From Cyanophyceae cyanobacterium (lineage in GTDB: Bacteria; Cyanobacteriota; Cyanobacteriia; Cyanobacteriales; JBHJGN01), in NCBI GenBank assembly GCA_050331735.1, contig JBHJGN010000028.1, positions 1-51,668 on the forward strand: a stretch of 51,668 bases of DNA. Direction: 5' to 3'. Under the pieces are notes generated by a model. The model was not told where the DNA came from, made no database searches, and worked only from the letters and a program-made list of their open reading frames with translations. The position numbers were made by a program, and so were the translations under genes. Below, piece by piece: positions 19,587-51,532 of this stretch (positions are counted from its first letter, which is position 1; every line of letters starts with the position of its first letter).

Positions 19587-19966
19587 CGCTCTCAGCAACT
19601 CAACGTTTTCCGAGCGCTCACGACAAACAACTAATATTGAATCCGTTTATCGCGGTTCTCACTTTAATAAGGTACAGTCTTACATCCCAGTTTTTTGTTG
19701 ATTGTTCGTCTTCGCATACTTCCTTACAATCTGTAAATTATTGATTTTTCTTTCCTTAGATATAGCTGAAGGCGCTTCAACCCTGTAAGCTTTCAGGTAA
19801 TTCTCAGGCTTAAGATGGATGTTTCTCGGTTTCGTACCGAGGAAACTAATAGTTCATACCTGAGTTAATTAGACTACAAACTCCGCCCTTCATTAGCATT
19901 GGGCAAAAAGATTTACAGACGTGTCGTATCCAGTGGGGAATTATCGTGATGGGACTAGGTATCCCG

Positions 19967-22900: not shown

Positions 22901-23077
22901 GCAGAGCGGATTCAGCAAGAAACCCTGCGTCGCCTTGAAGAAACTAAAGAACAGGCTCGCCGACAGGCAGAAGAAACCCGCAAGGCAGCGGCAGCAGCCT
23001 CGTGGTGGCTGTTTGCGACCGCTCTGATTTCGGCGCTTGCTTCTGCTGGAGCGGGTGCTCTCGCCGTCCTCGACTAA
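19967..23077 (+). CDS. Large membrane-anchored protein with ~100-aa helical repeats
   Basis: About three N-terminal TM helices and one C-terminal TM; repeated DYLxxTxxxELxPEGIxRDLxxLxxDP..RLSQFDRxTLVxLLxQRxD units; start uncertain (19946-19967). Confidence 0.85.
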   Translation: MFNLMQLVAQIPLESPVDNAEDAALVFSGPQFFTALVAGVLLAFAFQLLLTNLGVAAGISMLGGSDDSQSDDNSGGSVGGTIRKIGFALGLATLITVTISLFFASLFAVKLSLFVSAFSGAIVGLVIWATYFSVLVFVSSSTVGSLVGSIVNTATSGFQAVLGTATAAIGGQAVNKQVVATAEAAASAVRRELGSAIDPITIRENVEDYINALKAPTVDRASIRADFERLLEDPSVQEIAGAQGIERVNRQTFVELLNNRTDLSKRDIESIADELEVVWNRKVRSSQRRDSLGELVDYVKSATPDQLVGANFSDKLDSLIEEMRLSREAQQSHSQTQTQQGQGQGPVNQAIAMGMNSLMGMVMGRADLTDISAEQIVNQLKKLGAQAGISTEKLPKQLPGTATNPIRTDVENYILNAYPWQLKSENLEREFRDLLYDPDADPGTVGDALEQISRSDLADWLQQKGLYTQSEIRELSLKLDAVRREVLVTARAAQEREKSLALQRDVEQYLLTTPKENLTPEQIQSEFKPLLRDPDTDYEHLSNRLAQFDRPTFERLLAQRGDLELVEVSAMTNELEIARDRALSESQEVTESTKAQAEALWSRAKSFFQETSAQDLTDKNVQHELDLLFKDAGSTGAASLRTRAARFNRDDLVQLLTQRGDLSQEQANRIADQTERTWTQIRYAPQQLTGKAQEQYSKAESAIADYLRSTGKAELNPEGIKRDLQKLFADPQTGAQAIRNRLASMDRDTLVQLLNQRDDLSEEQINQTIDSVQDTLRSIARTPRRLARRAQGQVQSFQDSIADYLRSTGKDELDPEGITRDVQLLLNDPRAGRESLQERLSQFDRTTLVALLSQREDIAEEDVNQIIDQILSVRDQVGLQVRTIQLKIEAAIENLLDRIRQYLNGLERPELNYEGITTDLRTLLDDPQAGFEALRDRLSQFDRDTLVAIMSSREDMSEADANGLIDRIEQTRNRLLQRAERIQQETLRRLEETKEQARRQAEETRKAAAAASWWLFATALISALASAGAGALAVLD

Positions 23078-30987: not shown

Positions 30988-31218
30988 ATGAAAATCGATC
31001 AGCTTATTCAAATTATTTGGGTCGCTTCTGCCGTTTTGCTTATCGTGCTAGTGTTGCTGCACTCTCCCAAAGGAGACGGCATCGGCGGCATCGGTGGACA
31101 GGCTCAACTGTTTACCAGCACCAAAAGTGCTGAGAAAACCCTAAACCGCGTTACCTGGGCACTCAGCATTACCTTTATTAGCTTGACCATCGTTTTAAGT
31201 GCCGGCTGGTTGGGGTAA
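30988..31218 (+). CDS. secG: Preprotein translocase subunit SecG
   Basis: VLLHSPKGDGIGGIGG..FTSTKSAEKTLNRVTW; gpmI-secG synteny. Confidence 0.96.
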   Translation: MKIDQLIQIIWVASAVLLIVLVLLHSPKGDGIGGIGGQAQLFTSTKSAEKTLNRVTWALSITFISLTIVLSAGWLG

Positions 31219-32071
31219 AAAACATCGGACAGCGCTAAGAAGCTGGTGGCGAAAGCGACGAATTGTCCTGATTGGAGTCGCGCTAGCTACCAGCATTATG
31301 GCTGTGGGGTGGCCGGCACCAGGAAGCGCCTACTATTCTGCTGGAGTCTCTATGGGCCTCAAGCAAGCTCAAACGACCTTGCCTACCTTGCAAAGTCATC
31401 CTTTACCCCCGTCTCTGGCTCAATGGCAGGCGACGGAAGAAAACTATTTTTCTGCGGTAGCATCTACTCCCGTTGGCTATCTGATCTGGTCGGAGTTTCC
31501 CGTTAAAGTTTACTTAGAGCGCCCCCCGCTGACCAATGCAGCAGCCAGCACCCAACGTTTTCAGCAGTGGGTAGACGCGGTCCAGTCGGCCATACAGGAA
31601 TGGAATCGCTATTTCCCCTTGGTAGCAGTAGAGCAACCGGAAATAGCAGATATTGTGATTGAGCGATCGCACCCTCCTCGCAAAGTCACCGTCAGAGAAG
31701 ATGGTCTCCTAAACATTCCTCGCGCTCGCTCGGCGCAAACTACCTATAGGTTTTATCTCCAGCAGTCTATTCTGTCTCATCGGATGTTGATTCAGATTCG
31801 TCCTGGACAAAGCCCTGCTGCTACCCAAGCAACCGCTCGTCACGAACTCGGACATGCCCTCGGAATTTGGGGACATAGCCCGTCGCCCAGCGATGCTCTC
31901 TACTTCTCTCAAGTCCGCGATTCTCCAGCAATTTCCCCTCGAGACATCAATACCCTCAAGAAAATCTACCAGCAGCCGACTCGACTCGGTTGGAAACTTA
32001 AGACTAAGTCGCTCCGCGACGGGGAAAAGGAGAAAGGGAAATCTGTCCCTCCGGGACGGGGAAGGGGATAA
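31199..32071 (+). CDS. Zinc metallopeptidase (matrixin/M10-like)
   Basis: HELGHALGIWGHS zinc-binding motif; N-terminal signal/anchor; C-terminal tail is repeat-derived. Confidence 0.85.
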   Translation: MPAGWGKKHRTALRSWWRKRRIVLIGVALATSIMAVGWPAPGSAYYSAGVSMGLKQAQTTLPTLQSHPLPPSLAQWQATEENYFSAVASTPVGYLIWSEFPVKVYLERPPLTNAAASTQRFQQWVDAVQSAIQEWNRYFPLVAVEQPEIADIVIERSHPPRKVTVREDGLLNIPRARSAQTTYRFYLQQSILSHRMLIQIRPGQSPAATQATARHELGHALGIWGHSPSPSDALYFSQVRDSPAISPRDINTLKKIYQQPTRLGWKLKTKSLRDGEKEKGKSVPPGRGRG

Positions 32072-34942: not shown

Positions 34943-35581
34943 TTACTCTTTTTTCCCAGCGGAAGATTCGCGCCCAGCGACACTTTCGATCGCCGTGAGA
35001 GCAGCAGCCGAGCCAGCAATAATATCGCGTTCTTCCCCGCCTAAATAAAGACGACCAAAGCTGCCGACAGCCTGCACCGTGAGGATGTTAATCAAAGCCG
35101 CTTTCTCGGCTTCGTTAGCAGCTAAAGCCGCATAGGCAGCCGGCTGAACTTCTAATACATAAAGAGATTCACCCGCCAAGAGCATCTGCCCGCGTCGGTT
35201 CCGGTTAATGAGCTGCGCCTGATACGGATCAATATTGCGGATAATCTGGCTAGAAATCACTCTCGGCTTGAGGCATTCGCGCTGATCGACTCCTAGCGCT
35301 GCTAAGATTGCCTTCCCCGCCGCTCGGGTTTCGCCCTGTCTGCTGGAATGAATTTCTAAGAGGCCGTAGAGCCTTTCAACAAACTGTACGCCTGGGCGCA
35401 CCACCGCCGCTTTAAGAGCGACATCGGTAATGCGGTTAATTTCGATGCCAGGAGAAATTTCAATCCATAGAGAAGCATCGCCCGGAAGAGGCAAAAACCC
35501 GAGCGCCACCGTCCCAATGTACGACGCATGCTGAGGCTGTAAGCGATCTAGATATACGTAACTGCGCAGTTCTACGCCCAA
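34943..35581 (-). CDS. ccmP: Carboxysome tandem-BMC shell protein CcmP
   Basis: [56 protein letters not shown]. Confidence 0.9.
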
Positions 35582-38494: not shown

Positions 38495-40579
38495 TTACAA
38501 CTTAATTTCTACTTCTAAAAAAGCTCGTTCTATTGCCTGGGCTAAATTTAGTTTCTGTTGTTGAGCGTATAGATCAGCCGCACTACGATATGCTAGCAAT
38601 ATCTCGCGAAAGTTTTCAATCTTTCCATTTGAAGTTTTGATATTGAGAAGAACCCAACCTAAGTTATGTTGTGCCTGCGCGTAGTGCGACTTTAATTGAA
38701 CAGCCTTTTCTAAACAAAGACGTGCTTGAGTCCAATATCCACTTCTTCCCCATAAAGTACCCAAGCGAAATAGAACAAGAGGATTTGGGGAGAATTTTTG
38801 AGCGTGTTCTTCATAAGCTTGGATGGCTCCTTGAGGGTTATTTAAGCGTTCTTGAGTCACGCCTCGATTAATTAATAGCCAGCTTGGAACTTGTGCTTGA
38901 GAATTTGCTTGTTCAAAACTAGTTTGGGCATCAGACCATAATCCTTGTTTAGCCTGCTTCCAGCCTTTAAATCCCCAACCCCAAGCACTATTTGGTAGTT
39001 GGGTAATAAATTCTTCAATCCGTCTGTCTACATCCCTGGCTTGCTTGGTAACAACCGCTTTATCTAGGGCAATAATGAGAAGCGGATAAATCCATTGCTG
39101 TAGCGCTTGAGAATTTCTAGACTGAGCCGCTTTTGACTTAAAGACTGCTTGAGTAGCTGCCCGAATAGCGGGTTTCCATTGCTGTTGATTGGCTGCTATC
39201 CAGGCTTGGATTCCTAAAGCAAAAGTGCAACGGCTGTCTATTTGAAGCGATTTCGCTACCGCCACCTCAGCCTGTTGCCAATTGCCGGATTTTCCGAGTG
39301 CCCAAGCTAAATTTGTCTGTATCCAAGCTTCCTGGGAAGAAAGACTCGCTGCTTGCTGTAGCTGACTAACGGCAACTAACCACTGGGCTTGGCGGCAGCT
39401 AATCAGCCCCAACACTCCATAGCTTCTGCCGTCGTTGGGTTTGAGCTGAATCGCTTTTTGAGCCGCCGCTTCTGCTTGAGATTCATCGAGGTGAATTTGC
39501 ACTAATGCTAGTTCGACGGCGGCTTCACCATTACTGGGTTCATAAGAGAGACATTTCTCGTAAGCTTGAACGGCTTCCGCTAGCCGAAGCTGCTTAGCTA
39601 GCTCTTGGGCGCGTTTTTGGATTGGAGAAATTAACTTTCCTTCGAGAGCGTTAATTAATTCATCAGCAGATTGAAACCGATCCTCGACCCGCATTTGGAG
39701 TCCGGTTAAGACAACCTTTTCAATTAGCTCAGATAGATCGGAGCGTAATTGTCTTGGAGGAATTAGGGAGTCTGAATGGACTCTGACAACGGGATCGGCA
39801 GGCAGTTCTCCGGTTAATACTTCATACATCGACGCGCACAGAGCATAAATATCGGTTGCTGCCCAGCGCTTACTTTTGTAGCTGTATTGTTCAAGAGGAG
39901 CATACCCTTTTGTCAAAGTGACGCTCAATTCGCGGGTTTGACCAGCAATAAATTCTTTCGTCGCCCCAAAATCAATCAATACAGCTCGGTCTTGACCGTC
40001 GATAATAATATTTTCTGGTTTGAGATCTCGATGTAAAAAGTTATTTCCATGAACAACTTTGAGAGCTTCTGCCACTTGAATAAAGTAACGTTTGACTCGC
40101 TCTTCGGAAACTCTCCCTTCTCTTTTAAAAATGCTATATAAAGTTTCGCCAGCGACAAATTCCATGACGATGTAAGCGGTATCGTTTTCGTCAAACCAGT
40201 CGTAGACTTTGACGATGTGGGGATGTCTGCATTGGTGTAGATAAGAAGCTTCCAGCTTAAACTTAGTGAGCTGTTGCTGTCGTTCCTTGGGGGCGATCGC
40301 ATGAGGCCAGGTAACGCTAGTTCCCTGCCTCACTGCTTTTTCTGGCCACAGTTCTTTGAGGGCAACTGTTCCTGCATTGGTCAAATCAGTTCCTTGATAG
40401 GTAATGCCGAACCCACCGTCGCCAATGACTTTTTCAATGCGATAGTGTCCTTGCTTGAGGAGCGTTCCTGTTGGCAAATGGTACGTTGAACTACTGAGTT
40501 CCAAAGGAGTGCCGCAGCTAATACAGGATTGGCTGTTGTCAGAATTAGCAGTGAGGCAACTAGGGCAATCGAGTGTCAT
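38495..40579 (-). CDS. Zn-ribbon + Ser/Thr protein kinase + TPR protein
   Basis: CPSC/CISC; IGDGGFGITY, VALKE, HRDLKPEN, IDFG, GYAPLE; C-terminal TPR repeats; no TM. Confidence 0.93.
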   Translation of the reverse strand: MTLDCPSCLTANSDNSQSCISCGTPLELSSSTYHLPTGTLLKQGHYRIEKVIGDGGFGITYQGTDLTNAGTVALKELWPEKAVRQGTSVTWPHAIAPKERQQQLTKFKLEASYLHQCRHPHIVKVYDWFDENDTAYIVMEFVAGETLYSIFKREGRVSEERVKRYFIQVAEALKVVHGNNFLHRDLKPENIIIDGQDRAVLIDFGATKEFIAGQTRELSVTLTKGYAPLEQYSYKSKRWAATDIYALCASMYEVLTGELPADPVVRVHSDSLIPPRQLRSDLSELIEKVVLTGLQMRVEDRFQSADELINALEGKLISPIQKRAQELAKQLRLAEAVQAYEKCLSYEPSNGEAAVELALVQIHLDESQAEAAAQKAIQLKPNDGRSYGVLGLISCRQAQWLVAVSQLQQAASLSSQEAWIQTNLAWALGKSGNWQQAEVAVAKSLQIDSRCTFALGIQAWIAANQQQWKPAIRAATQAVFKSKAAQSRNSQALQQWIYPLLIIALDKAVVTKQARDVDRRIEEFITQLPNSAWGWGFKGWKQAKQGLWSDAQTSFEQANSQAQVPSWLLINRGVTQERLNNPQGAIQAYEEHAQKFSPNPLVLFRLGTLWGRSGYWTQARLCLEKAVQLKSHYAQAQHNLGWVLLNIKTSNGKIENFREILLAYRSAADLYAQQQKLNLAQAIERAFLEVEIKL

Positions 40580-40582
40580 TTT

Positions 40583-41857
40583 CTAATAAGTTTCAAAGCG
40601 AAAACGAACTTTACCAAAAGCAATTTCATCTTCTGTGTTCAATTTTTGAGGAAGAGTAATTCTCTCAAAACGTGATTGACCAACACACTTAACAAAAATG
40701 CCGTTAGCTGAGCCTGAATCGGCAATTTTCCACTCTCCTGATTCTCTGTAAATTTTGCCGTGTTGACGCGATACAGTTTGAGAACCAGAAAAGTGATTTA
40801 AATCAATATCGACTGAAGCGCCCGGTTCGGCTCGTCCAATAACGTGCTGCGTGTTTTCTAAGATGAATTCTGGACAAGAGCTAACGGATGGAACGGGAAT
40901 AAGTTTAGCAATCTGCTCTCCTCCCGTCAGTGCTTTCAGCAGTTCGTCTGCTGTCTGAAAACGCTCTTGGACGCGCATACTCATACCAGTCCAGATAACT
41001 TGTTCTAGGAGGGGATCGATATGAGGAGCGAGATGGCGAGGAGGAATGAGGGCTTCTGAGGCAAACCTTTCTGTAGCGGGTGCTGGTAGCTTGCCAGTGA
41101 GCGCTTCGTACATGGAGGCACACAGCGCGTAGATGTCTGTAGCAGGCCAGCGCTTGCTTTCATAACTGTATTGTTCCAGAGGAGCATAGCCAGGAGTGAG
41201 CGTGACGCTCATTTTGCGAGTTTGACCAGCAATAAATTCCTTAGTTGAGCCAAAATCGATCAATATAGCTCTATCTTGACCGTCGATAATAATATTTTCT
41301 GGTTTAATATCACGATGAAGTAGATTAACCTGGTGAATGGCTTTGAGCGCTTCAGCCAGTTGAATAAAGTAGCGCTTAACCTGCTGATTCGGCAAAGGAC
41401 TCGCTTTAATCAATTGGGAAAGTGGCTGACCAGTAATGAGCGCCATGACAACGTAGGCGGTGTTGTTGGCTTCAAAGCAGTCGTAAACCCGAACGATACT
41501 GGGGTGATGGCATCGGGAAATGTAGGTCGCTTCGGTAGCTATCTGTTTTAGCTGTAGCTGGCGGTTGTGGGGCGTTACTGTTGGGGGCCAAACAATCGTG
41601 GTTCCTTGGCGAATAGCTTTTTCGGGCCAGCTTTCTTTAACGGCAACGGGGCGAGAGTGAACTACATCAATAGCTTTGTAAGTAATGCCAAAGCCGCCTT
41701 CACCCAGGACTTTTTCAACCTGATATTTCTGTTGTAGAAAGCTACCGGACGGCAACAGGTAGCTGTGCTGATTCGCGTTTAAAGCTACACCACAAGCAAT
41801 ACAGATAGCTGCGTTAACTTGATTCTCTGCCATACAGGTAGGACATTGAATAGACAT
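40583..41857 (-). CDS. Zn-ribbon + Ser/Thr protein kinase + FHA protein
   Basis: True start MSIQCPTC (41857), since the upstream extension is MITE; LGEGGFG, HRDIKPEN, IDFG; FHA motifs IGR, SRQH, SANG. Confidence 0.93.
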   Translation of the reverse strand: MSIQCPTCMAENQVNAAICIACGVALNANQHSYLLPSGSFLQQKYQVEKVLGEGGFGITYKAIDVVHSRPVAVKESWPEKAIRQGTTIVWPPTVTPHNRQLQLKQIATEATYISRCHHPSIVRVYDCFEANNTAYVVMALITGQPLSQLIKASPLPNQQVKRYFIQLAEALKAIHQVNLLHRDIKPENIIIDGQDRAILIDFGSTKEFIAGQTRKMSVTLTPGYAPLEQYSYESKRWPATDIYALCASMYEALTGKLPAPATERFASEALIPPRHLAPHIDPLLEQVIWTGMSMRVQERFQTADELLKALTGGEQIAKLIPVPSVSSCPEFILENTQHVIGRAEPGASVDIDLNHFSGSQTVSRQHGKIYRESGEWKIADSGSANGIFVKCVGQSRFERITLPQKLNTEDEIAFGKVRFRFETY

Positions 41858-41860
41858 TTT

Positions 41861-42010
41861 ATCCCAATTAGAAAAAGGAATGAGAGACTTGCTGAGTTGG
41901 GAAAGAGGGAAAAGGGTAAGGGGGAAAGGGAAGTAAGCAGGTCTTTTTCTTTGAACCTCCAACTCTTTGTTAGTTTGGGGAATGATCTGACTACTTTCGG
42001 CAAATGGTAT
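41861..42010 (+). mobile_element. ~150 bp MITE, copy C, inside the kinase operon
   Basis: ATCCCAATTAGAAAAAG...GACTACTTTCGGCAAATGGTAT; fills the gap between the PP2C stop and the kinase ATG. Confidence 0.85.
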
Positions 42011-43815
42011 TAGTTAGCCTTAATCCGGCACTGTAAAGCGAGAAGAGTAGCATTATCAGCCGCTCCTCGCTTAAGGACTAGCTCAATCGTCCTATCTACA
42101 GAGGATTGCAGATATTGTGGACACGTAAAAATTTCTGCGAGTTCTTCCGGTGAAACGAGATCCCAAACGCCATCCGAACACAGAAGCAACAGATCCTCAT
42201 CTTCTAGGATCATCGATCGGGTTCCAGCGGTACGGCTGAGATCCTGAACGTAGCCACTGCTTAACTGTTGTTTTGAACCAAGAGATTTAATCAGCACACT
42301 CCGCTCTGGATGGTTTAAGCTTTCTTCATCGGTAATTTGACCGCTCGCTACCAACATGGCAACTAGGGTATGATCTTCACTTAACTGGCGGATTTCTCCC
42401 TTGCGTACTAGGTAGATGCGGCTGTCTCCGACATGGGCGATCGCTAATTGATTGGCACTTGCCATGACCACGCTCAAAGTCGTTCCGCCGTCGCGCACCG
42501 CTGTGGCGGTCGCCTGATTTGCTTGCTCAAAGAGCGATATTAGCCAGTCTGCTCGTTGTTCCGACTTCAAACCTGGAGGAATTGGTTCACTCAGAACCGT
42601 TTGAATCGCTAGTTTACTCGCCACTTCTCCTTGAGACATGCCCCCCATACCATCAGCGACAGCGGCTAATAGATACGTATCGGTATTGCTGAGCTGCTGT
42701 TGGACACCGTAGCTATCTTCGTTTTGCAGGCGATCGGTTGATAGTCCGACAGTAGAACGACTAGCGATGTTCCAACGAACTTCAGGAGTGCGAAACGAGT
42801 TCCGGGAACTGACTAAAAGGGTAAGTAACTGAGCAAGGGAAAAGCGTTCTTCGCAGATAGGAGAGAGGCTAATTTTCAGGAGTTGATGGACGTGAGGAAT
42901 GGGCTGAATTTCGATATTTAGTGGCTGATCTGACGGTGGGGGCTGCTGATGAATCGCTTGGTAGAGTAGCGCTCCAACGGTATAGGTACTCATGGTTTCA
43001 TCGAAAGGATAACCAGAAGCGAGTTCGGGAGCGCAATAATCGCCTATCAGTCCTAAGCTTGGCTTTTCTCCCACAGGGTAAGCAGTGGTGAGATCGAAAA
43101 ACTTTAGGGGTGTCCCAATTTGAATCAGTTGAGGCAGCAAATTGGCAAAGCACCACCCTCGCTGAAAGACATAGGAAAAGCCTTGACAAATTTGTACAGC
43201 CAAAGATAAGCACTTTTCTGGGGAATTATCCCCTGTTAGCCAAGTTTCCAAAGTGGAACCCTCTGGAAAATCCGTTAAGAGAATTAGCTTTTGCTGAGAT
43301 TCTGGACCAATTTCTTTTTCTGGATAGTATTCTTCTTCTAAATACTCTGATGTTGGTTCAATTTGTTCAGGAGGTTCTATCTGTTGTTCGCTAGACGTTT
43401 CGGCAGCCAACGATATATCTGGGCTGTTTTCATCGACATCTTCAGCGATCGCCTCAAGCTGCTCTCCCTGCTCCTTTTCTATCCATTCCGTTTCTTGGTT
43501 AGTGATTTGACAGGAAAGCTTGAGCGCCACAGACTCTTCAACAGTATGAGCCAGCAAGGGGGCAACCATGCCGTAATCGCCCAGCACTTCCCTAAGCTGT
43601 AGTTCCCGACTCAAGCCACCGTCGATAGCCCCAACTCGCAGCAAGCCTAATTGCTCAGTGTTAAAATTGTCGTCTGAATTAATTTTTACTTTAAAGGAGT
43701 GAACATCTTCCGAGAGTAAGCCCAGGTATGCCAATACTTCTACTCGATAGTTTTTAAGGTAGAAGCAGTGGTTTTCCTGAATGACTAACTCTTGATTGGG
43801 TAAGGCTAAAATCAT
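42010..43815 (-). CDS. Degenerate kinase-like domain + PP2C (PPM) phosphatase
   Basis: NEDSY, VADGMGG, GGTT, HVGDSR, DHT, LCSDG, DNAT; N-terminal half has YCAPE and YTVGALLY but lacks HRD and DFG; acidic linker. Confidence 0.9.
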   Translation of the reverse strand: MILALPNQELVIQENHCFYLKNYRVEVLAYLGLLSEDVHSFKVKINSDDNFNTEQLGLLRVGAIDGGLSRELQLREVLGDYGMVAPLLAHTVEESVALKLSCQITNQETEWIEKEQGEQLEAIAEDVDENSPDISLAAETSSEQQIEPPEQIEPTSEYLEEEYYPEKEIGPESQQKLILLTDFPEGSTLETWLTGDNSPEKCLSLAVQICQGFSYVFQRGWCFANLLPQLIQIGTPLKFFDLTTAYPVGEKPSLGLIGDYCAPELASGYPFDETMSTYTVGALLYQAIHQQPPPSDQPLNIEIQPIPHVHQLLKISLSPICEERFSLAQLLTLLVSSRNSFRTPEVRWNIASRSTVGLSTDRLQNEDSYGVQQQLSNTDTYLLAAVADGMGGMSQGEVASKLAIQTVLSEPIPPGLKSEQRADWLISLFEQANQATATAVRDGGTTLSVVMASANQLAIAHVGDSRIYLVRKGEIRQLSEDHTLVAMLVASGQITDEESLNHPERSVLIKSLGSKQQLSSGYVQDLSRTAGTRSMILEDEDLLLLCSDGVWDLVSPEELAEIFTCPQYLQSSVDRTIELVLKRGAADNATLLALQCRIKAN

Positions 43816-43839: not shown

Positions 43840-44388
43840 TTAGGCACTTTGGAAGAGAAAGCGAACTTTAGCGATCGCCACTTCATCTCCCGAATGAATC
43901 GTTTCTGGGGTAGTAATTCTGGCTCCAAAACGGCTTTGACTGACAGGTTTAATAAACACGCCATTCGTAGAGCCAAGGTCTTTAATTTTCCACGCTCCTG
44001 CTTCTTGATAGATCTCAGCATGGTTGCGTGAGATGGTTTCGCTCCCTGGAAATTCTTCTAGATCGATATCGACGGGTCCGGTATCTGGATCGAAGATGCC
44101 CACAATGGCATAACTATCTAGACAAAATTCAGCAATGGGAGCGTTTGGCTGCTTGGCGACTAACTTAGCAGGTACAGCAGAAGTTTGGGGAATTGTTGGC
44201 TCAGGAACGGGGTTTGAAGTTAGCGGAGGCGGGGACTGTGGCTCCAAAGAAGGTGCTTCTGGCACTGGTGAGGATTCAATCGGAGCGGATGCTGATGCGG
44301 TTGGTGATAGTTCTGCGCCGCAAGCATCGCAGAATTCCGAACCATCGGGGTTTTGATCGTAACCACAGCTTGTACAAAGGATTGACAT
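43840..44388 (-). CDS. Zn-ribbon + Pro/Ser-rich linker + FHA domain protein
   Basis: CTSC/CDAC; SRNH and GSTNG FHA motifs; start moved to ATG 44388 (AAGGAAG upstream). Confidence 0.9.
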   Translation of the reverse strand: MSILCTSCGYDQNPDGSEFCDACGAELSPTASASAPIESSPVPEAPSLEPQSPPPLTSNPVPEPTIPQTSAVPAKLVAKQPNAPIAEFCLDSYAIVGIFDPDTGPVDIDLEEFPGSETISRNHAEIYQEAGAWKIKDLGSTNGVFIKPVSQSRFGARITTPETIHSGDEVAIAKVRFLFQSA

Positions 44389-44448: not shown

Positions 44449-46374
44449 TTACGTACCTGAAAGCGCTCGTATTTCTGCTTCTGAAGGCAGGTCGTCGTTA
44501 ATATCGCTGCCCATTTTGACCGTTTTGCCTTTGGAACCCATTTTGACGGTTTTACGAGTTCCGGCTGAAATTTTGCGAGTGAGGCGTAGCTCGTCAATTC
44601 CTTCATTGAGAGATTCTTCCATCGCTTTATTCCCAATCTTGACCGTAAGGCGACGAGCAGTTTCCATTAGTTTTTCTGCTTCTTGAGGATTCTGTTCTGC
44701 TACCTGTGTAGCGTTGTTCACAAGCTGAGAAATGTTGCGCTGCTGAACGTACCCCATCACCTCTTGGTCTACTTGAGCAGCACCATTTTGTCCGGCAACA
44801 AACTGCACCACTACGTTTTGAGGAGGAAGTTCGCCGCGTCGGTTTTGTCCGGGAACATCGTAGGTTAAGCCAAGCTGGGCAACGCGTACGCGAGAGGTGA
44901 CGCGACTGTCTACGTTGAATTCTAAGATAAACACCGTTTCATCATTGCCAACAGCAGTACCAATAGGATAGGGTTGAGTCGTCAATGGAAATTCGGCTTG
45001 GTCGGGATAGACGCGAGTAACGCGCTCTAGCTCAACTCCTTTCACGGACTTAACGCTGAGGGCGAGGTTGTTAATTACTTCTTGCTGAGCTTGACTAAAT
45101 TCGCCAAACAGGGTTCGAGGCAGATCGTTGATAGAAACTTGCGTCCCCGTTGCCTGTCCGGGAACGACATGAAAGAGATGACCGCCAGTGGTATCGCTAA
45201 GATGAATGAGTAAATCTTCGTTATATTCCCCAACGCCAAGGGCGGTCATGGGAATCCCAGCGCTGGCAAACTGCTGAGCGAGATCTCGACACTCAAAATC
45301 ATCAAAGGTTTCGCCATCGGTAAAAATGAGAGCGCGGCGACTGGTCATAGTTTGGTTGGAGAGTAAATCCATCGCTTGATTAAGACCTAGCCCTAGGCGA
45401 GTCCCGCCAGAAAAGTCATGGAGATTATCAATTGCCTTTTGGAGCTGATTGATTTCGGTTGCTGGTGTGAGTCCAATGAGAGTAGAAGCTTGGTCGTCGA
45501 ATTGAATCAGAGCAATGCGATCTGTTTGCTCTAGTTTTCCTGACCAAATTAGCTCTTGCAGGGATTTAATGACCAGAGCAATTTTTGTTTCTCCGCCAGT
45601 GACTGCCATGTAATTTTGACCGTCTACCTGAAAGGTTTGTCCGGTTGGCTGTGAGTCTCCGGTGACGACTTCATACATCGAGCCGCTTGTATCGATTAGA
45701 AAAGCGAAGGTTGTCGGTGGGCGAGTATTGGCAATCTCTCTTGTCGGTCGCAGCTTCAGCATAATAAACAATTTCTGAGCGGCGGTATCGGCAGGCAGAA
45801 ATTCACGATGGGAGGTAAGAGTAACGTTTAGCATGTTGATATCAGTAGTGGAGTCTGCGTTTTGATGGCAATTTGACGAGGCATCGTGTGGGTTTGTAGC
45901 TGTGTCTGTTGCTTGGGGAAGATCTTGATGAGCTTGTTCTGTAAAGCGCAGGCGGAGCAATTCTTGCTTTTGGGTTTCGACGAGATCGGCTTGTGGAGCG
46001 GAGATAGCATGGAGAAGACGAGAAATGCTGTCTAAGGCGCGGTAGGTGTCATCGGTTGAGAAGTTACCGCTGTGCGCCCACTGGTTGCGAGCCGTGCGTA
46101 GTTCGCTCACTAAACTGCGTTCTGCGTAGCCTAAGCTTTGTTTGAAGACGTTATGCCATTTATTGCAGATTAAGATCAGCAAAGCTGAAATATCTTCTTT
46201 AAGAATTTGAGCAGTACTGCGTCGCAGGGTGCGGTCTTCCGGTACGCTAGCCGCCGCAGCGTCTAGCCAGTTGTCTTGATAAGCAGAACGCATTTCTTGT
46301 TCCACAAAGGGATATAAGCCTTCTCTGAGAAGGTCTAAGGCTCTACCCACTCGTTCTTGGTTTGTCATTGCCAT
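44449..46374 (-). CDS. Swt1-like HEPN domain fused to a vWA domain protein
   Basis: aa 1-~150 MTNQERVGRALDLL..ELRTARNQWAH..DTYRALD (Rx4H); linker; from M181 a vWA with MIDAS DTSGS, GGT, TDGE. Confidence 0.88.
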   Translation of the reverse strand: MAMTNQERVGRALDLLREGLYPFVEQEMRSAYQDNWLDAAAASVPEDRTLRRSTAQILKEDISALLILICNKWHNVFKQSLGYAERSLVSELRTARNQWAHSGNFSTDDTYRALDSISRLLHAISAPQADLVETQKQELLRLRFTEQAHQDLPQATDTATNPHDASSNCHQNADSTTDINMLNVTLTSHREFLPADTAAQKLFIMLKLRPTREIANTRPPTTFAFLIDTSGSMYEVVTGDSQPTGQTFQVDGQNYMAVTGGETKIALVIKSLQELIWSGKLEQTDRIALIQFDDQASTLIGLTPATEINQLQKAIDNLHDFSGGTRLGLGLNQAMDLLSNQTMTSRRALIFTDGETFDDFECRDLAQQFASAGIPMTALGVGEYNEDLLIHLSDTTGGHLFHVVPGQATGTQVSINDLPRTLFGEFSQAQQEVINNLALSVKSVKGVELERVTRVYPDQAEFPLTTQPYPIGTAVGNDETVFILEFNVDSRVTSRVRVAQLGLTYDVPGQNRRGELPPQNVVVQFVAGQNGAAQVDQEVMGYVQQRNISQLVNNATQVAEQNPQEAEKLMETARRLTVKIGNKAMEESLNEGIDELRLTRKISAGTRKTVKMGSKGKTVKMGSDINDDLPSEAEIRALSGT

Positions 46375-46484
46375 GCGGGAAGACTGAAATCTGTAGCCTT
46401 ACTGTTTATATTTCCCACTAAAGCAGCAAGAAGTAGCATAAAATCTAAAAAAAATCTGTTCTGGTTCCGAATAGTAGAATTTAC

Positions 46485-47318
46485 GTGAGAACTGATACGA
46501 TCTTTTTTCGTCTGTTTCAATCTTTCCCGGAAATTTTCTTTGAACTGCTCGATGCTCCGGTACAGCCATAGGCTTATCAGTTTGCCTCGGTAGAAGTAAA
46601 ACAACTAGCTTTCAGAATCGATGGCGTGTTCCTTCCGGCTGCTGATGACCCCGAACAACCAATCTACTTTACCGAAGTGCAGTTTCAGCCGGATGCTCAG
46701 TTTTACTCGCGCTTTTTTAGCGAAATCTTTCTCTATCTTGCTCAAACCGATTTAACCAATAACTGGCGAGGGGCCATTATTTTTCCCAGTCGTCGTGTTG
46801 AGATTGGTAATTCTGAGCGCTACAGTGAGTTGCTTGCTTCTACACGAGTGACCAGGATTTATCTGGATGAGCTAGGAGCGAGTGCGGATGAGTCCGTTGG
46901 CATGGCAACAGTTCAGTTAATAGTGACTGAAGAAGAAACGGCTATAGAACGGGGCAGGTCTTTAATCGATAGAATTAGAAGTGAAAGCGAAGATGAGCAG
47001 CAAGCTAGAGAACTTTTAGAGTTAATCAAGACCATCCTAATTTACAAGCTACCCGAAACCAGCCGGAGGAAGATAGAAGCCATGTTTAGTTTGAGTGATT
47101 TGAAGCAAACTAAGGTTTATCAAGAAGCATTAGAGGAAGGGAGACAAGCAGGCAAAGAAGAAGGGAGACAAGCAGGCAAAGAAGAAGGCAAGCTGGAAGG
47201 CAAATTAGAATCTGTACCATTGCTGCTGTCTTTAGGCGCAACGGTAGAACAAATAGCCGAGGCGCTGAATCTGGATGTAGAACGAGTGCGACAGGTAGCG
47301 CAGCAGCAAAGTGAGTAG
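46485..47318 (+). pseudogene. Rpn-family (DUF2887) nuclease gene with a premature stop
   Basis: GTG 46485 reads VRTDTIFFRLFQSFPEIFFELL..QP*AYQFASVEVKQLAFRIDGVF, in frame with the 46626 ORF; TAG at 46569-46571; EVQFQ motif; EEG repeats. Confidence 0.85.
47136..47183 (+). repeat. Perfect 24-bp tandem duplication (EGRQAGKE x2)
   Basis: gaagggagacaagcaggcaaagaa twice; typical variable C-terminal repeat of Rpn proteins. Confidence 0.9.
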
Positions 47319-47351: not shown

Positions 47352-47735
47352 CTACCCAAAGACTAAGGGTGGTAATGCGCCACCTTGCGGTTCAATGCCT
47401 GTTAAGTCAGGCTTAACTGGTTCGGGGAGCTGCTGATTGCCATCCTCTTTAAGTTGTTTAATATTGGCTTCAATCAGCAGAGGTAAGTCTAAAGTGACTG
47501 TGGTGGTGCGATAGCCTTCACCAATATCTTCCAGCCAAGCTGTTATTAAGCGGTTGAGATTCGCTTCGCTAATCTGGCAAGCACTTTGACTTTGCAAGGA
47601 TTGCTGGACTTTCTGCCGAATTTCTGGGGTAAATATCTGTTTTGGTTGATTCTCCTGACTGGTAGATAAATTGAAAGCATAACTGTAGCGCTCTTCGGTA
47701 TCTTTCAGTTGTAGGAACAGGGTGTAAGTAGCCAT
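47352..47735 (-). CDS. Hypothetical protein (127 aa)
   Basis: Clean ATG ORF with protein-like composition, same strand as the kinase operon. Confidence 0.7.
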   Translation of the reverse strand: MATYTLFLQLKDTEERYSYAFNLSTSQENQPKQIFTPEIRQKVQQSLQSQSACQISEANLNRLITAWLEDIGEGYRTTTVTLDLPLLIEANIKQLKEDGNQQLPEPVKPDLTGIEPQGGALPPLVFG

Positions 47736-47865: not shown

Positions 47866-48744
47866 CTAGGGAAAACTTACTTCTGCCCAAATGCGAGTCT
47901 TTTCTACATCAGAGTTTGTATCGACAAAAGCTTCTATTCGATTAATCTCTACCTGCTGACCTGTTTTAAGAGGATTACTTGCTTTTTCAGCTAGTTTAAA
48001 ATTGGGAGGTTGTGGCACGTTACGACGCAAGTTTACACCTGTTTTGAGGGTTACTACTTCTCCTGGTACAGGAACAATAGATGGAGTAATTGACACAGGC
48101 TGACTTTTTGTAGGGATTAATGGTTCATTATAAGAAAAAGTACCAGACGTATTATTAACAGCACCTATCCATATCCAACCGATAGCTTCAGACTGAGTTA
48201 CTGCGGTAGAACGATTTAAACTCGTTTTTTCTGGCTGAGGAGAATAAGAATTATTAGAATTAGTATTATGTTGAGCTGCCTGAGATGGTAAATAGTTTGA
48301 CTCAGCAGTAGGCAAGGGCTGAGTATTATTCAAACTCATTTCTATGTCGAAAGTTGTAGAAGCTTTTATAGCAGAAATTTGTATTATATAGCTACCTGTT
48401 TGTGGCAGAATACTGCTTTGTAAAGCTTTGCTTTCTGGAGTGTAAATTAAAACACAAATATCTTTGTTAACTTGATTATCAAGTTTTTGTCTTTTCTGAG
48501 CTTTAAAAGCATACGCTATCGGTTTACTTTTATGCGCTATTCCAGATTCTTGAGTTGGCTGCTCGTTTAGTTCAATCATTTTTACATTTCTGCTGCTTAA
48601 GCTAAAATTTTGCTTTTCAGGGCACTTTTCTTTCTCGGTTGATAAATCTCGTTCTGTAGAGTTAGTCCTTTCGTGCTTTAGATTAGAACAGCTAACGCAA
48701 ACGAGTATCAAAGAAACAAGATAACAAATCTTTAGTTTAAACAT
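47866..48744 (-). CDS. Hypothetical lipoprotein with PPC-like beta domain and C-terminal SH3-like segment
   Basis: LVCVSC lipobox-like; YAFKAQKRQKL..ICVLIYTP..LPQTGSYIIQI; VNLRR..LKTGQQVEI; AT-rich. Confidence 0.7.
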   Translation of the reverse strand: MFKLKICYLVSLILVCVSCSNLKHERTNSTERDLSTEKEKCPEKQNFSLSSRNVKMIELNEQPTQESGIAHKSKPIAYAFKAQKRQKLDNQVNKDICVLIYTPESKALQSSILPQTGSYIIQISAIKASTTFDIEMSLNNTQPLPTAESNYLPSQAAQHNTNSNNSYSPQPEKTSLNRSTAVTQSEAIGWIWIGAVNNTSGTFSYNEPLIPTKSQPVSITPSIVPVPGEVVTLKTGVNLRRNVPQPPNFKLAEKASNPLKTGQQVEINRIEAFVDTNSDVEKTRIWAEVSFP

Positions 48745-48780: not shown

Positions 48781-49698
48781 CTAAATGTTTTTATTAATTA
48801 ACCAACTGTCTCTCTCTTTACTCCATACTAGATAAATACGACTTTTATAATCTTCAAACACTGTATTGTTGTTCATGACATACCATAATTCAGCATTGAC
48901 TACAGCAGTAGTGTGAGATTGAGCAATCAACGTTACTTTTCCTATTTTTATTTCTTTGACACTGTTCCACCACTCTTTATATTTAGAATAAGATGGTAGT
49001 TTTCTTTGAAATTTGAAAGAAAGTTTTTCCCAAGTTGGTTTATAATCGCGGTCATTAAGTTTTTTGTAATACTCTACAATAAATTCATCTGCCGCTGGAC
49101 GTTCTTCTATTTCTTTGTAATTTGTTAGACTAGTTGTTGAGGGAACTTGTTCAGAGAAAGATGGAGCTTGAGCATCTTCTATAGCTAAACTAAGTTTAAA
49201 AGTAGTAGAGCCACGAGGAACAGAAACTTGAATTATGTATTTACCATTTTCTGGTAATTCCACGCTGTCAAGCATTTCATTTCTTTGGTTATAAATCCAT
49301 ATACAAAGCTCGTTTTCTGTGTTGCAAGAAAGCTTTTGCTTTTCTTTGCCTTCAAAAATATATCCTAGATCTTTCCCAGATATTATTTGAGCAGATATGG
49401 TAGTACTCTGACTATCAACATTGACTTCTTCTACCTGTGCCGGACTAAGTTCTCCTGGTTTGTCTGAACACTCATCCTTTGCTGTTGCAGGATCTATAAT
49501 CGTTGCTTGTGTAGTATTTGAAAATTTTGAACAACCAATACATTGTAAAACAATAATTCCAAGGAAAAATACTTGTGGGGATTGTACCAGTAGTTTAAAT
49601 TTGGTAAATAACGACAAAGCACTTAAAACGTTTTCTTTAAGCAGTTGAACCGTCATTTTGTTTTTAGATTTTGCTATTTTTATGAAGGCAAATCTCAT
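48781..49698 (-). CDS. Hypothetical exported protein; N-terminal domain paralogous to 47866 ORF, plus NTF2-like C-terminal domain
   Basis: YIFEGKEKQKL..LCIWIY..LPENGKYIIQV; FIVEYYKKLN..W..LS..FQ..Y.EWW; start uncertain. Confidence 0.7.
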   Translation of the reverse strand: MRFAFIKIAKSKNKMTVQLLKENVLSALSLFTKFKLLVQSPQVFFLGIIVLQCIGCSKFSNTTQATIIDPATAKDECSDKPGELSPAQVEEVNVDSQSTTISAQIISGKDLGYIFEGKEKQKLSCNTENELCIWIYNQRNEMLDSVELPENGKYIIQVSVPRGSTTFKLSLAIEDAQAPSFSEQVPSTTSLTNYKEIEERPAADEFIVEYYKKLNDRDYKPTWEKLSFKFQRKLPSYSKYKEWWNSVKEIKIGKVTLIAQSHTTAVVNAELWYVMNNNTVFEDYKSRIYLVWSKERDSWLINKNI

Positions 49699-50000: not shown

Positions 50001-50336
50001 CTATTGAGGATCGCCACAGACATAATCAGATCTGACCCAACCCTGAGAACCGTTATGATAGACATTCCACCAGTAAAAACCGTCACTCGCATATCTCCCG
50101 CTACTCAGCGCTACCGTATGACCGTTAGGTATTTCCTTGATCTTGCCAAAGTTTGTTCCCGGACCCATACGCAAAGAAAGACGACCATTGCCAGAACGGG
50201 TACAAACTTGTGCGTAAGTTCCTTGGTTTGAGGAATGATTAATGTAGTCTGTTACCCCTAGTCCAGGGCCGACCTGAGCCTTGACAGGAAGTGCAGCAGC
50301 TAGTAAGAAAGCGCTAGTAACAATAGTTCTGAACAT
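50001..50336 (-). CDS. Secreted SH3b-domain protein
   Basis: Signal peptide ..VKA|Q; LSLRMGPGTNF..IPNG..WW.V..GWVRSDY; AGGAG RBS. Confidence 0.88.
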   Translation of the reverse strand: MFRTIVTSAFLLAAALPVKAQVGPGLGVTDYINHSSNQGTYAQVCTRSGNGRLSLRMGPGTNFGKIKEIPNGHTVALSSGRYASDGFYWWNVYHNGSQGWVRSDYVCGDPQ

Positions 50337-50369: not shown

Positions 50370-51056
50370 TTAAATGTTGACTTCGAGGTACTGAGGTTGA
50401 TAGGTGCGAATGAAAGAGAGAACGTGGTCGAGATCTTGCCGATTCGTCAATGCAATGCAGCCAGATGTCCCATCTTTACCGTTAGACATATCGAAGGACG
50501 GGTCATAATGAATGCCCAAAGCAGAGCGCCCGGTCTGAAACTGAGGATAGATGGGCAAAAAGCGATCGCCCACTTCTGGATGCGTTCCCGGAACCGTTGA
50601 ACTAGCAACGGTATAGCGTCCGTTAGGCAGTGGAGCTTCCGTTCCGGCAACATGACGATTGTTGTCTTGAGTATGACTACGACCAGTAACGCTTTCAAAA
50701 GCAGCAGCTCTTTGTCCGTTAGCGTATAAAGAAATCAGATAAAGCGGATTCCCTTGAGCGTTAGTATTTCCCGTCTTCGTGAGAGTTATGTAGCTACCTT
50801 GGTTGGATAGCTGCGAATTGCTCTGAGCCATACGATGTTGGTCGAGTGGCTGTTTTTCAATCGTCTCTGCAATTGAGGACGGGGAAATTGCTCTCAGGTC
50901 TTGCCGCTTCTGTGCGCTTAATTCGTCCGGTAAAAGCTGCTTAGTATTGACAGATTCAGCCTCAGATGGAGGTAGTAGATGTTCCTGATCAGCATTAGCT
51001 GTACAAGCAACAACTGCGATTAGACTGGCAGTTGCCAGGGTTATTTTGAGCAACAT
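50370..51056 (-). CDS. L,D-transpeptidase-like (YkuD/DUF2778-type) lipoprotein
   Basis: VVAC lipobox; APLPNGRY; LGIHYD....GTSGCI catalytic His/Cys motif; start moved to ATG 51056. Confidence 0.8.
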   Translation of the reverse strand: MLLKITLATASLIAVVACTANADQEHLLPPSEAESVNTKQLLPDELSAQKRQDLRAISPSSIAETIEKQPLDQHRMAQSNSQLSNQGSYITLTKTGNTNAQGNPLYLISLYANGQRAAAFESVTGRSHTQDNNRHVAGTEAPLPNGRYTVASSTVPGTHPEVGDRFLPIYPQFQTGRSALGIHYDPSFDMSNGKDGTSGCIALTNRQDLDHVLSFIRTYQPQYLEVNI

Positions 51057-51532
51057 AAATTTGGCTAGAATCTTATAACTGCCGCTGTGCTTTACAAGCA
51101 ATAGCAACATTGATTAATCACAGAATATCTAGCCAAATATGAATAAACATCGGTATTAATAAGCAGAATATGCCCTAAAATCCTCAAAAATGCGGGATTT
51201 TACGGCTTAATCCTAAACAATATCGGCAGTATAGTTGAGAAACTACTCAAGACGGAGCGGGAATAGCAACTCCGCAAAAATTCAAGCTAAGCACCGTAGT
51301 AAGCAAAACCTCCAGAAATTAGTTATTTCTGACTATGAAAGTTTTCTACATGGATACAGAGTCTTTAAAAGGGACGAGCTAAAAGCGTTACTAATATCAG
51401 TTTTATTCGTAGTATTTTTTCTATAAAGTTGCTTCTCGCCTTTATGCAGAAGGTTTTTTGATGAGTTTTCACGATACCAATGCCCGAAAATGACCAACTA
51501 TCAATCTGTTAAATACTTAATCTTCTTCACTG

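Follow-up and report, generated by a model that had tools for sequence, protein, structure and literature searches.

How did a Swt1-like HEPN domain come to head an otherwise standard vWA protein of a cyanobacterium, and does the resulting gene yield one protein or two? The question is raised by a 51,668-nt stretch of DNA (the window), comprising positions 1 to 51,668 of contig JBHJGN010000028.1 of a Cyanophyceae cyanobacterium (assembly GCA_050331735.1), in which one gene encodes both domains in a single reading frame. It seems rather probable that this gene is the product of a recent in-frame graft of the N-terminus of a HEPN-DUF499 ATPase onto a gene for an ArnB-like vWA protein, whose assembly into a ribonuclease (RNase) would be controlled by phosphorylation. 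Both modules are known already; it is their joining that appears to be new, and this has a clear, testable functional implication.

The fusion gene and the sources of its parts

The gene, located on the (-) strand, is organised as follows (aa, amino acids; pLDDT, predicted local distance difference test; pN, proportion of nonsynonymous differences). Residues were converted to base positions by arithmetic from 46374.

44449..46374, (-): HEPN-linker-vWA fusion gene, encoding P0001 of 641 aa (641-codon open frame and Pfam)
45928..46374, (-): captured module, aa 1-149, a Swt1-like HEPN with a trailing helix (Pfam, homology and HEPN-only model)
46072..46089, (-): R-x4-H catalytic motif RNQWAH, aa 96-101 (motif and alignment)
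45835..45927, (-): linker, aa 150-180, 31 aa (disorder, low complexity, pN 0.58, pLDDT ~30)
45832..45834, (-): ATG of Met181, the old start codon of the vWA gene (alignment column and RNA folding)
44452..45834, (-): vWA-family body, aa 181-641 (Pfam, family search, model and Foldseek)
44491..44586, (-): disordered C-terminal tail, aa 597-628, with two KTVKMG repeats (alignment and model)

Pfam recognises HEPN_Swt1 (PF18731) at aa 11-125 (46000-46344; profile positions 1-115 of 115, E 4.8e-41, 140.1 bits against a cut-off of 27.5) and VWA (PF00092) at aa 225-403 (E 6.7e-17). The sequence MLNVTLTSHREFLPAD begins at aa 181, the first base of which is 45834; this position of Met181 and that of the catalytic motif (46089-46072) had been given exactly in an earlier note, made from the letters alone. 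The low-complexity linker which that note had placed between the HEPN and Met181 was borne out as a disordered segment of 31 aa in the AlphaFold2 model of the full-length protein (38-row alignment, mean pLDDT 73). In this model, helices extend over residues 5-150, pLDDT is below 50 (~30) across 147-178, and the first strand (182-191) opens a body composed of a split beta-sandwich with the vWA domain, its further beta-sandwich part at 432-524, a helix bundle (537-602) and a disordered tail (601-628). The HEPN segment has no anomaly of G+C content, and the coding strand of the linker is strongly G-poor. The HEPN-vWA architecture is also present in eight other sequences on separate contigs; the linkers of the fusions differ in length and cannot be aligned with each other. 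In the collection's own gene call for the window locus (P0002, 461 aa), translation starts at Met181 and the HEPN is dropped.

A search with aa 1-150 returned 1047 matches, and the counts that follow refer to the best 120 of them. The great majority (106 of 120) are proteins of ~1100 aa, mostly cyanobacterial, which combine PF18731 with PF04465 (DUF499); the others are seven vWA fusions, six HEPN-RNase III fusions and one 1119-aa protein with PF18731 alone recorded. The statement, in the earlier note, that HEPNs of this type usually head DUF499 ATPases was therefore correct, and PMC3710099 agrees with it. Among the matches listed, identity of DUF499 proteins to the window HEPN reaches 72% (P0122, and P0123 from Myxosarcina; ~1110 aa). 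The homology runs from residue 1 to approximately residue 149 (LRLRFTEQAH versus LRLRFEEQAR) and then ends. In a tree of 123 HEPN segments, all nine vWA-fused HEPNs and seven DUF499 HEPNs form one 16-row clade (Shimodaira-Hasegawa-like approximate likelihood ratio test, SH-aLRT, 97), nested deep in the DUF499 diversity; the branching order inside the clade is not resolved. A single HEPN capture for the nine fusions is possible from this tree, and the donor of aa 1-149 was the N-terminus of a cyanobacterial HEPN-DUF499 ATPase (HmaC-type, BREX-related type 1). Matches to the DNA of the DUF499 gene on plasmids are only 52-54% identical.

The Ava_2192 branch of the Swt1-like HEPNs is fused to DUF499 ATPases, is encoded in restriction-modification-like operons and was classed as active (Anantharaman 2013, PMC3710099). 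These systems are now named type-1 BREX-related or Hma systems; 1370 of 2446 taxa have the HEPN fused, and the domain is predicted to serve as a suicide RNase of last resort (PMC12839542). The six HEPN-RNase III fusions (P0199, P0215, P0218, P0221, P0232 and P0234; 386-403 aa) carry the HEPN at the N-terminus, with the break at approximately residue 141, and are monophyletic on the HEPN tree. They are a second export of the module, pairing two RNases.

The other part of the protein belongs to a widespread family. A search with aa 181-641 gave 397 matches, of which the best 120 were inspected: 113 are vWA-only proteins (cyanobacterial, mostly 458-467 aa, four at 409-448 aa, 65-77% identity), six combine PF18731 with vWA (643-657 aa) and the last row is the window's own gene called from Met181. 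The suggestion that the HEPN was grafted onto an otherwise standard vWA gene agrees well with these numbers. For the column of Met181, we tallied the stored family members with the H-[RK]-x-aromatic motif of the conserved HREF stretch in their first 260 residues. In 80 family members the start methionine falls exactly in this column, as expected of the natural vWA start that the earlier note had seen there. Another 47 start 3-6 residues earlier, and their residue in the column is P (15), N (13), V (11) or another, never M. The column is M in all nine recent fusions (the six listed, the window, genome locus L001 and fragment P0208). Judged from this alignment, Met181 is the ancestral start of the vWA gene.

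The fold of the recipient was compared with known structures using Foldseek and the full model. The best matches were 4fx5 (Catenulispora vWA, E 1.3e-19), 8s05_A (E 2.9e-18, TMt 0.75) and 5a8j, followed by Sec23/24; the title of entry 8s05 is 'ArnAB complex, an archaeal ortholog of the Sec23/24 core motif', and 5a8j is an ArnB paralogue. At the sequence level, a phmmer search of PDB reaches 8s05_A with an E of only 0.0035, the structurally aligned residues are 15-18% identical, and none of the Pfam families matching the fusion protein at E <= 0.01 is specific to ArnB. The model thus presents the recipient as a vWA protein resembling ArnB in its predicted fold.

The grafted domain appears intact. 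An alignment of 42 HEPNs (vWA-fused, DUF499, RNase III-fused, P0250 and P0404) contains 14 invariant columns, including R96, N97, A100 and H101, and 29 more columns at least 90% conserved. The window protein keeps the conserved residue in all 14 invariant and, as compared by eye, all 29 near-invariant columns. Between the window and L001, the ratio of nonsynonymous to synonymous substitution rates (dN/dS, Nei-Gojobori) is 0.12 for the HEPN (dS 1.31), 0.09 for the vWA domain and 0.06 for the C-terminal region; the linker (pN 0.58, proportion of synonymous differences, pS, 0.83, dN/dS undefined) is unconstrained. Since these values come from one sequence pair with synonymous sites near saturation (dS 1.3-2.6), they indicate constraint and not its exact strength. 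The AlphaFold2 model of aa 1-150 alone (pLDDT 90.4) has seven helices forming an all-alpha bundle. Foldseek with this HEPN-only model found no match in PDB at E <= 0.001; the top TM-scores in the 50 rows listed are those of the yeast Swt1 C-terminal domain 4pqz (TMq 0.44, E 1.1), which is not significant. A two-copy complex prediction of aa 1-150 (median score 0.31, mark 0.42) gives no verdict and carries no weight either way. From conservation and constraint, the HEPN domain is intact and maintained, and hence predicted to be functional. The earlier note had also considered that all homologues might carry the HEPN, or that the fusion might be a degenerate one-off. In fact, 113 of the 120 listed relatives lack it, and nine sequences share the fusion, with the catalytic motif intact and a HEPN dN/dS of 0.12.

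Insertion site and history of the graft

A scan of species-representative genomes identified at least 79 loci with the vWA gene, 54 of which are cyanobacterial (52 full-length orthologues and two fragments). Only one of these 54, L001 (Xenococcaceae MO_167.B27), matches across residues 1-641. At the 35 unfused loci that could be anchored, an in-frame stop codon lies 0-68 codons 5′ of the ATG and there is no HEPN within 9 kb; at the loci not anchored by the script, the tblastn match begins at query residue 143-182. A phmmer search of all open reading frames (ORFs) of at least 50 aa in loci L001-L056 detected a HEPN in L001 alone.

The vWA gene is part of a conserved operon. In ~50 loci the order is o305/o292 paralogues, o127, vWA, a zinc-ribbon-FHA gene, a pseudokinase-PP2C gene, a kinase-FHA gene (some loci) and a kinase-TPR gene. 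The corresponding genes of the window, together with a gene that interrupts the series, are the following.

43840..44388, (-): zinc-ribbon and FHA protein, ArnA-like (FHA E 4.4e-11, CxxC...CxxC; likely start ATG 44388 after AGGAAG)
42010..43815, (-): pseudokinase and PP2C phosphatase (kinase-like domain below the Pfam cut-off, without HRD, DFG and G-loop)
40583..41962, (-): zinc-ribbon, Ser/Thr kinase and FHA protein (G-loop, VAVK, HRDIKPEN and DFG intact)
38495..40579, (-): zinc-ribbon, Ser/Thr kinase and TPR protein (catalytic motifs intact)
47352..47735, (-): small conserved protein o127, without known family (upstream neighbour of the vWA gene in other loci)
46626..47318, (+): DUF2887/Rpn-family nuclease-transposase-like gene, between o127 and the fusion gene

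In 51 of 53 cyanobacterial loci, the gene directly 5′ of the vWA gene is a homologue of o127, both exceptions being cut by contig ends. Because o127 directly precedes the vWA gene in other loci, the HEPN was inserted between o127 and the vWA start. The last linker codons of L001 (..aacaatctctcaattaaaaatATG) resemble the 5′ leader of its unfused relative L002 (..aattaatctcttaactaaaaaaATG), which suggests that the end of the linker is the former 5′ leader, now read through. The DUF2887 gene is absent from the equivalent position in L001 and in the other loci, where the operon is contiguous. In the window it splits the operon, so that a promoter belonging to the fusion gene itself must lie in 46375-46625.

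Several further observations concern this region. A motif TA[G/A]GTGGGAA with an A/T-rich hexamer lies upstream of the HEPN start both in the window (~46410-46430, (-)) and in L001 (~8917-8935); the rest of the intergenic DNA of the two does not align, and the shared motif may be a promoter or operator that arrived with the HEPN. An Atlas search with o127 gave no usable match. The o292 (47866-48744) and o305 (48781-49698) genes, both on the (-) strand, encode paralogues with lipoprotein-type signal peptides and no known family, homologues of which lie upstream of o127 in many related loci; beside them are genes for an SH3_3 protein (50001-50336) and a YkuD L,D-transpeptidase (50370-51110). Unfused copies of the operon are carried by plasmids of Gloeothece PCC 7822, Nostoc linckia NIES-25, Trichormus variabilis ATCC 29413 (35.8-kb), Tolypothrix PCC 7601 and 7712, and Nostoc ATCC 53789, and the operon is thus mobile to some degree. 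Elsewhere in the window, the ORFs at 19946-23077 (+) (1043 aa), 31199-32071 (+) and 34943-35581 (-) have no Pfam match at E <= 1e-5.

The earlier note had proposed that an effector was captured into a variable N-terminal slot of the vWA family. Searched with the vWA part, 1.84 billion cluster representatives yielded 2021 matches, and the architectures of the best 150 were examined. Nearly all of these are proteins of 420-470 aa aligned from residue 1. Genuine N-terminal additions are confined to P0250 (a second HEPN), P0359 (a protein kinase) and P0357 (a weak DUF6575 match), and P0343 combines vWA with a serpin that Pfam places at the C-terminus. We rejected P0306 as a further N-terminal partner: its 159-aa extension is rich in R, G, H and P and ends ...STMLNV, and was therefore taken for a miscalled start. 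Capture is thus upheld and the variable slot is not, the best 150 representatives being nearly all unextended; on these architectures, the mobile element is the HEPN module and not a slot of the vWA family. Miscalls like that of P0002 could hide further fusions among the '460-aa' relatives.

The P0250 protein is a singleton of 724 aa (HEPN_Swt1, vWA and FHA by Pfam). Its vWA part is 56-58% identical to unfused proteins of ~443 aa, and its HEPN is 61% identical over residues 1-152 to the DUF499 protein P0404. This HEPN is ~30% identical to that of the window, as estimated from the alignment, and occupies a very long branch on the HEPN tree. By these comparisons, P0250 is the same graft made independently. 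The same donor type, breakpoint and recipient family were thus joined twice, which speaks for HEPN and vWA being functionally compatible; the repeated joining does not argue for a generally variable N-terminal slot. P0250 joins the FHA domain too, and so holds three parts of the system in one chain.

The history within the clade is less simple than one graft passed on by descent, and it is here that the trees speak against such an account. The vWA tree (FastTree, 121 rows; IQ-TREE, 40 rows) puts the fusions in three places within one subclade; they do not form one vWA clade, and at least 2-3 changes are needed. The unfused P0004 and P0007 are the sister group of the vWA part of L001 (support 100/100). 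With the eight fusions united, even the best tree loses 109 log-likelihood units (p-AU 0.0004 in the approximately unbiased test), for a group that was named after the first tree had been seen. Moreover, the HEPN of L001 groups with the P0016/P0010 set and its vWA part with the set of the window. The observations fit one capture followed by loss, an exchange of 5′ segments between alleles, or miscalled starts in the 'unfused' sisters, of the kind met in the collection's call for the window.

One protein or two

The persistence of the old start codon inside the longer gene raises the possibility of two products, as suggested in the earlier note. The RNA around it is exceptionally open: the 60 nt around the Met181 ATG have a minimum free energy (MFE) of -0.8 kcal/mol, and among the 166 internal in-frame ATGs in 33 ORFs of the window (mean -12.6, standard deviation 4.3) no other site folds so weakly. 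The region also folds more weakly than 32 of the 33 ORF starts in the window (mean -8.2), these starts being as predicted by the ORF listing and not curated. The MFE at the equivalent ATG of L001 is 0.0, and the minimum of the sliding profile is centred on the ATG in both genes. The starts of unfused orthologues are open as well (mean -3.8, n=35). These features, together with the collection's gene call from Met181 (P0002), make initiation at Met181, giving a HEPN-vWA and a vWA-only protein, plausible, with the chances roughly even as far as the sequence can tell.

The strongest competing explanation accepts the same graft but holds that the gene yields the full-length protein alone, and that Met181 with its open RNA surroundings is a functionless leftover of the old start. 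Four observations favour it and count against internal initiation. A Shine-Dalgarno (SD)-like 4-mer at -20..-4 of Met181 is absent from the window and from L001, the two fused genes for which DNA is available, and present in 25 of 35 unfused orthologues. On the coding strand, a scan for promoters detected nothing sigma-70-like in 45834-46625, inside the HEPN or just upstream of it. The independent fusion P0250 has lost the methionine and has K at the junction. The RNA-structure minimum may arise in part from the polar, G-poor codons of the linker, as a disordered polar linker would make weakly folding RNA anyway.

Set against this, the ATG is kept in nine of nine fusions despite near-saturated synonymous sites (dS 1.3-2.6) and an unconstrained linker (pN 0.58), the structure minimum is centred on the ATG in both genes, and none of the 47 earlier-starting relatives has M in this column. 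Furthermore, L002, the nearest unfused relative, also lacks an SD-like motif, which indicates that none is required for the vWA gene. Taking both sides together, we give the full-length-only explanation somewhat less than an even chance.

Predicted mechanism, related systems and meaning

The graft of a HEPN-DUF499 N-terminus onto an ArnB-like scaffold leads to a proposal for the function of the protein. In the archaeal system, ArnB combines a vWA domain with a split beta-sandwich and a helix bundle; ArnC, a kinase that includes a TPR-like stretch, phosphorylates the C-terminal threonines of ArnB, and PP2A removes the phosphates (PMC12852372; PMC6509490). The FHA domain of ArnA binds the phosphorylated C-terminus of ArnB, and the zinc finger of ArnA docks on the beta-sandwich, including the beta1-beta2 loop (PMC12852372). 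In the protein analysed here, T599, S603, T606, T609 and T618 of the tail are invariant in 38 sequences, and the two KTVKMG repeats are nine residues apart. By analogy, the tail is a putative kinase target and FHA docking site, likely a double phospho-site. In the model, the first strand closes with the invariant HREF-P motif (aa 189-194), which continues into the following loop; this region, right behind the linker, would be the zinc-ribbon docking site. The zinc-ribbon-FHA protein and both active kinases each start with a CxxC...CxxC zinc ribbon, and since the zinc element of ArnA docks on ArnB, these three proteins may compete for one vWA site.

We propose the following course of events. 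The HEPN module landed between o127 and the vWA start, the old 5′ leader becoming a disordered linker into an unchanged vWA gene, and the vWA gene's own ATG, with its unstructured initiation region, persists inside the longer gene. As in ArnA/ArnB, the kinases and the PP2C would set the phosphorylation of the threonine-rich vWA tail, which the FHA protein would read, altering the assembly of the complex. In the fusion clade this assembly switch would carry an RNase, such that at least two HEPN-vWA chains form a composite HEPN site and cut RNA. The cleavage would halt growth or produce an abortive response, as has been proposed for this HEPN where it heads DUF499 ATPases. With less certainty, initiation at Met181 may continue, and the ratio of long to short protein may tune the amount of RNase assembled. 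A bolder version, to which we assign a small probability, treats the long isoform as a phospho-gated RNase and the co-assembling short isoform as an intragenic antitoxin that dilutes the HEPNs and sets the firing threshold; the operon would then be a conflict or dormancy switch onto which RNases were plugged at least twice.

Some facts do not favour this proposal. The mechanism is built by analogy with archaeal ArnA/ArnB and on the predictions made for DUF499 HEPNs. There is no obvious defence island, the window holding housekeeping genes such as uvrA, proB and iPGM. Comparison of the fusion protein with the PADLOC families gave nothing beyond a 25-residue stretch matching C3a64, the kinase matches were generic, and the NCBIfam scan gave nothing specific.

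A second alternative concerns the HEPN itself, which might not be an RNase effector but an RNA-binding sensor or regulatory domain, feeding the vWA/FHA/kinase switch or targeting the complex to RNA. Some Swt1-family HEPNs, among them that of eukaryotic Swt1, are thought to be inactive RNA binders (Anantharaman 2013, PMC3710099), and the host operon, which is present in most cyanobacterial lineages sampled, looks like housekeeping signalling. The R-x4-H motif and all invariant residues common to DUF499 HEPNs are nevertheless kept, and the Ava_2192/DUF499 branch is classed as active in the same paper (PMC3710099), so we regard a sensor role as unlikely. It is extremely improbable that the long ORF is a product of misannotation or misassembly, or a remnant in decay, and that the real gene is that of a 461-aa vWA protein, as the call from Met181 (P0002) and the ~460-aa length of most relatives might suggest, given 180 stop-free in-frame codons encoding a complete domain (E 4.8e-41), the same architecture in eight other sequences on separate contigs, and a HEPN dN/dS of 0.12.

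The proposed graft can be placed among several known systems. One of these is ArnA-ArnB of Sulfolobus acidocaldarius, with the kinases ArnC/ArnD and the phosphatase PP2A. The likeness extends to the fold of aa 181-602 (split beta-sandwich, vWA and C-terminal helix bundle), an adjacent partner with an N-terminal zinc ribbon and FHA, kinases (one with TPR) together with a Ser/Thr phosphatase, and a threonine-rich C-terminus. The differences are the 15-18% identity, the bacterial origin of the present system and its phosphatase, which is PP2C and not PP2A; ArnB, moreover, lacks an N-terminal RNase, and archaellum repression has no counterpart here.

Within bacteria, the vWA protein of the Deinococcus radiodurans cluster DRA0331-DRA0334 (vWA, serine/threonine protein kinase, FHA and PP2C) is homologous to aa 181-640 (40% identity, tblastn). 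The cluster has the same four functions (bioRxiv 10.64898/2026.01.23.701218), but lacks a HEPN and differs in gene order; the preprint concerns the FHA protein and the phosphatase, not the vWA protein. The tblastn match extends back to query aa 114, and a Deinococcus N-terminal extension was considered and rejected; this stretch is spurious, because the annotated coding sequence is of 460 aa.

The HEPN-DUF499 ATPase (Ava_2192 type; HmaC) is the donor of aa 1-149, with which it shares up to 72% of residues as well as the domain boundary; for its HEPN, endoRNase activity and a back-up role as suicide effector are predicted (PMC3710099; PMC12839542). In contrast to the DUF499 proteins, P0001 has no PF04465 match and its homology with them ends at approximately aa 149. 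None of the scanned window ORFs of at least 100 aa encodes an N6-methyltransferase, a Snf2 helicase-nuclease or a DUF499 ATPase.

Like the TerY-P triad, the operon encodes together a vWA protein, a PP2C and a zinc-ribbon Ser/Thr kinase; it differs in the N-terminal position of the zinc ribbons and in the additional FHA proteins and o127. PADLOC, which holds TerY-P models, has none that matched the vWA body. HEPN proteins accompany the triad in CoCoNuT types II and III-A (PMC10542128); there the HEPN is in the separate CnuE protein, whereas here it is fused to vWA. The MoxR-vWA-VMAP ternary systems (Kaur et al. 2020, PMC7159879) include vWA proteins with an N-terminal effector domain, whereas the present vWA family is almost never effector-fused. 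An assignment to these systems was rejected, as no MoxR ATPase or VMAP is encoded among the scanned window ORFs.

No description of a HEPN-vWA fusion was found in the literature searched, the supplementary tables of which were not covered and could list it. The term 'vWA' is absent from the main text of PMC3710099, HEPN is found in PMC7159879 in the reference list only and is discussed in PMC12839542 as DUF499-fused only, and the passages on HEPN, FHA and vWA in PMC8195603 and a 2026 ParA preprint are about other systems.

The fusion is informative beyond the window. As a case of domain shuffling, it still displays its donor, the breakpoint (~aa 149), the insertion site and a leader turned linker. 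As it retains the ancestral initiation site, it is also a natural candidate for a bacterial gene with two protein products. For annotation there is a warning too: fusions of this kind can be concealed by gene callers, as P0002, with its HEPN dropped, shows. The operon itself is present in all but a few of the 54 cyanobacterial loci (the exceptions being mostly contig-end cuts) and in Deinococcus. A scaffold that carries a predicted RNase, in one clade and in an independent singleton, would give this operon a testable output, namely regulated RNA cleavage, and the fusion also suggests that the job of the scaffold is controlled assembly.

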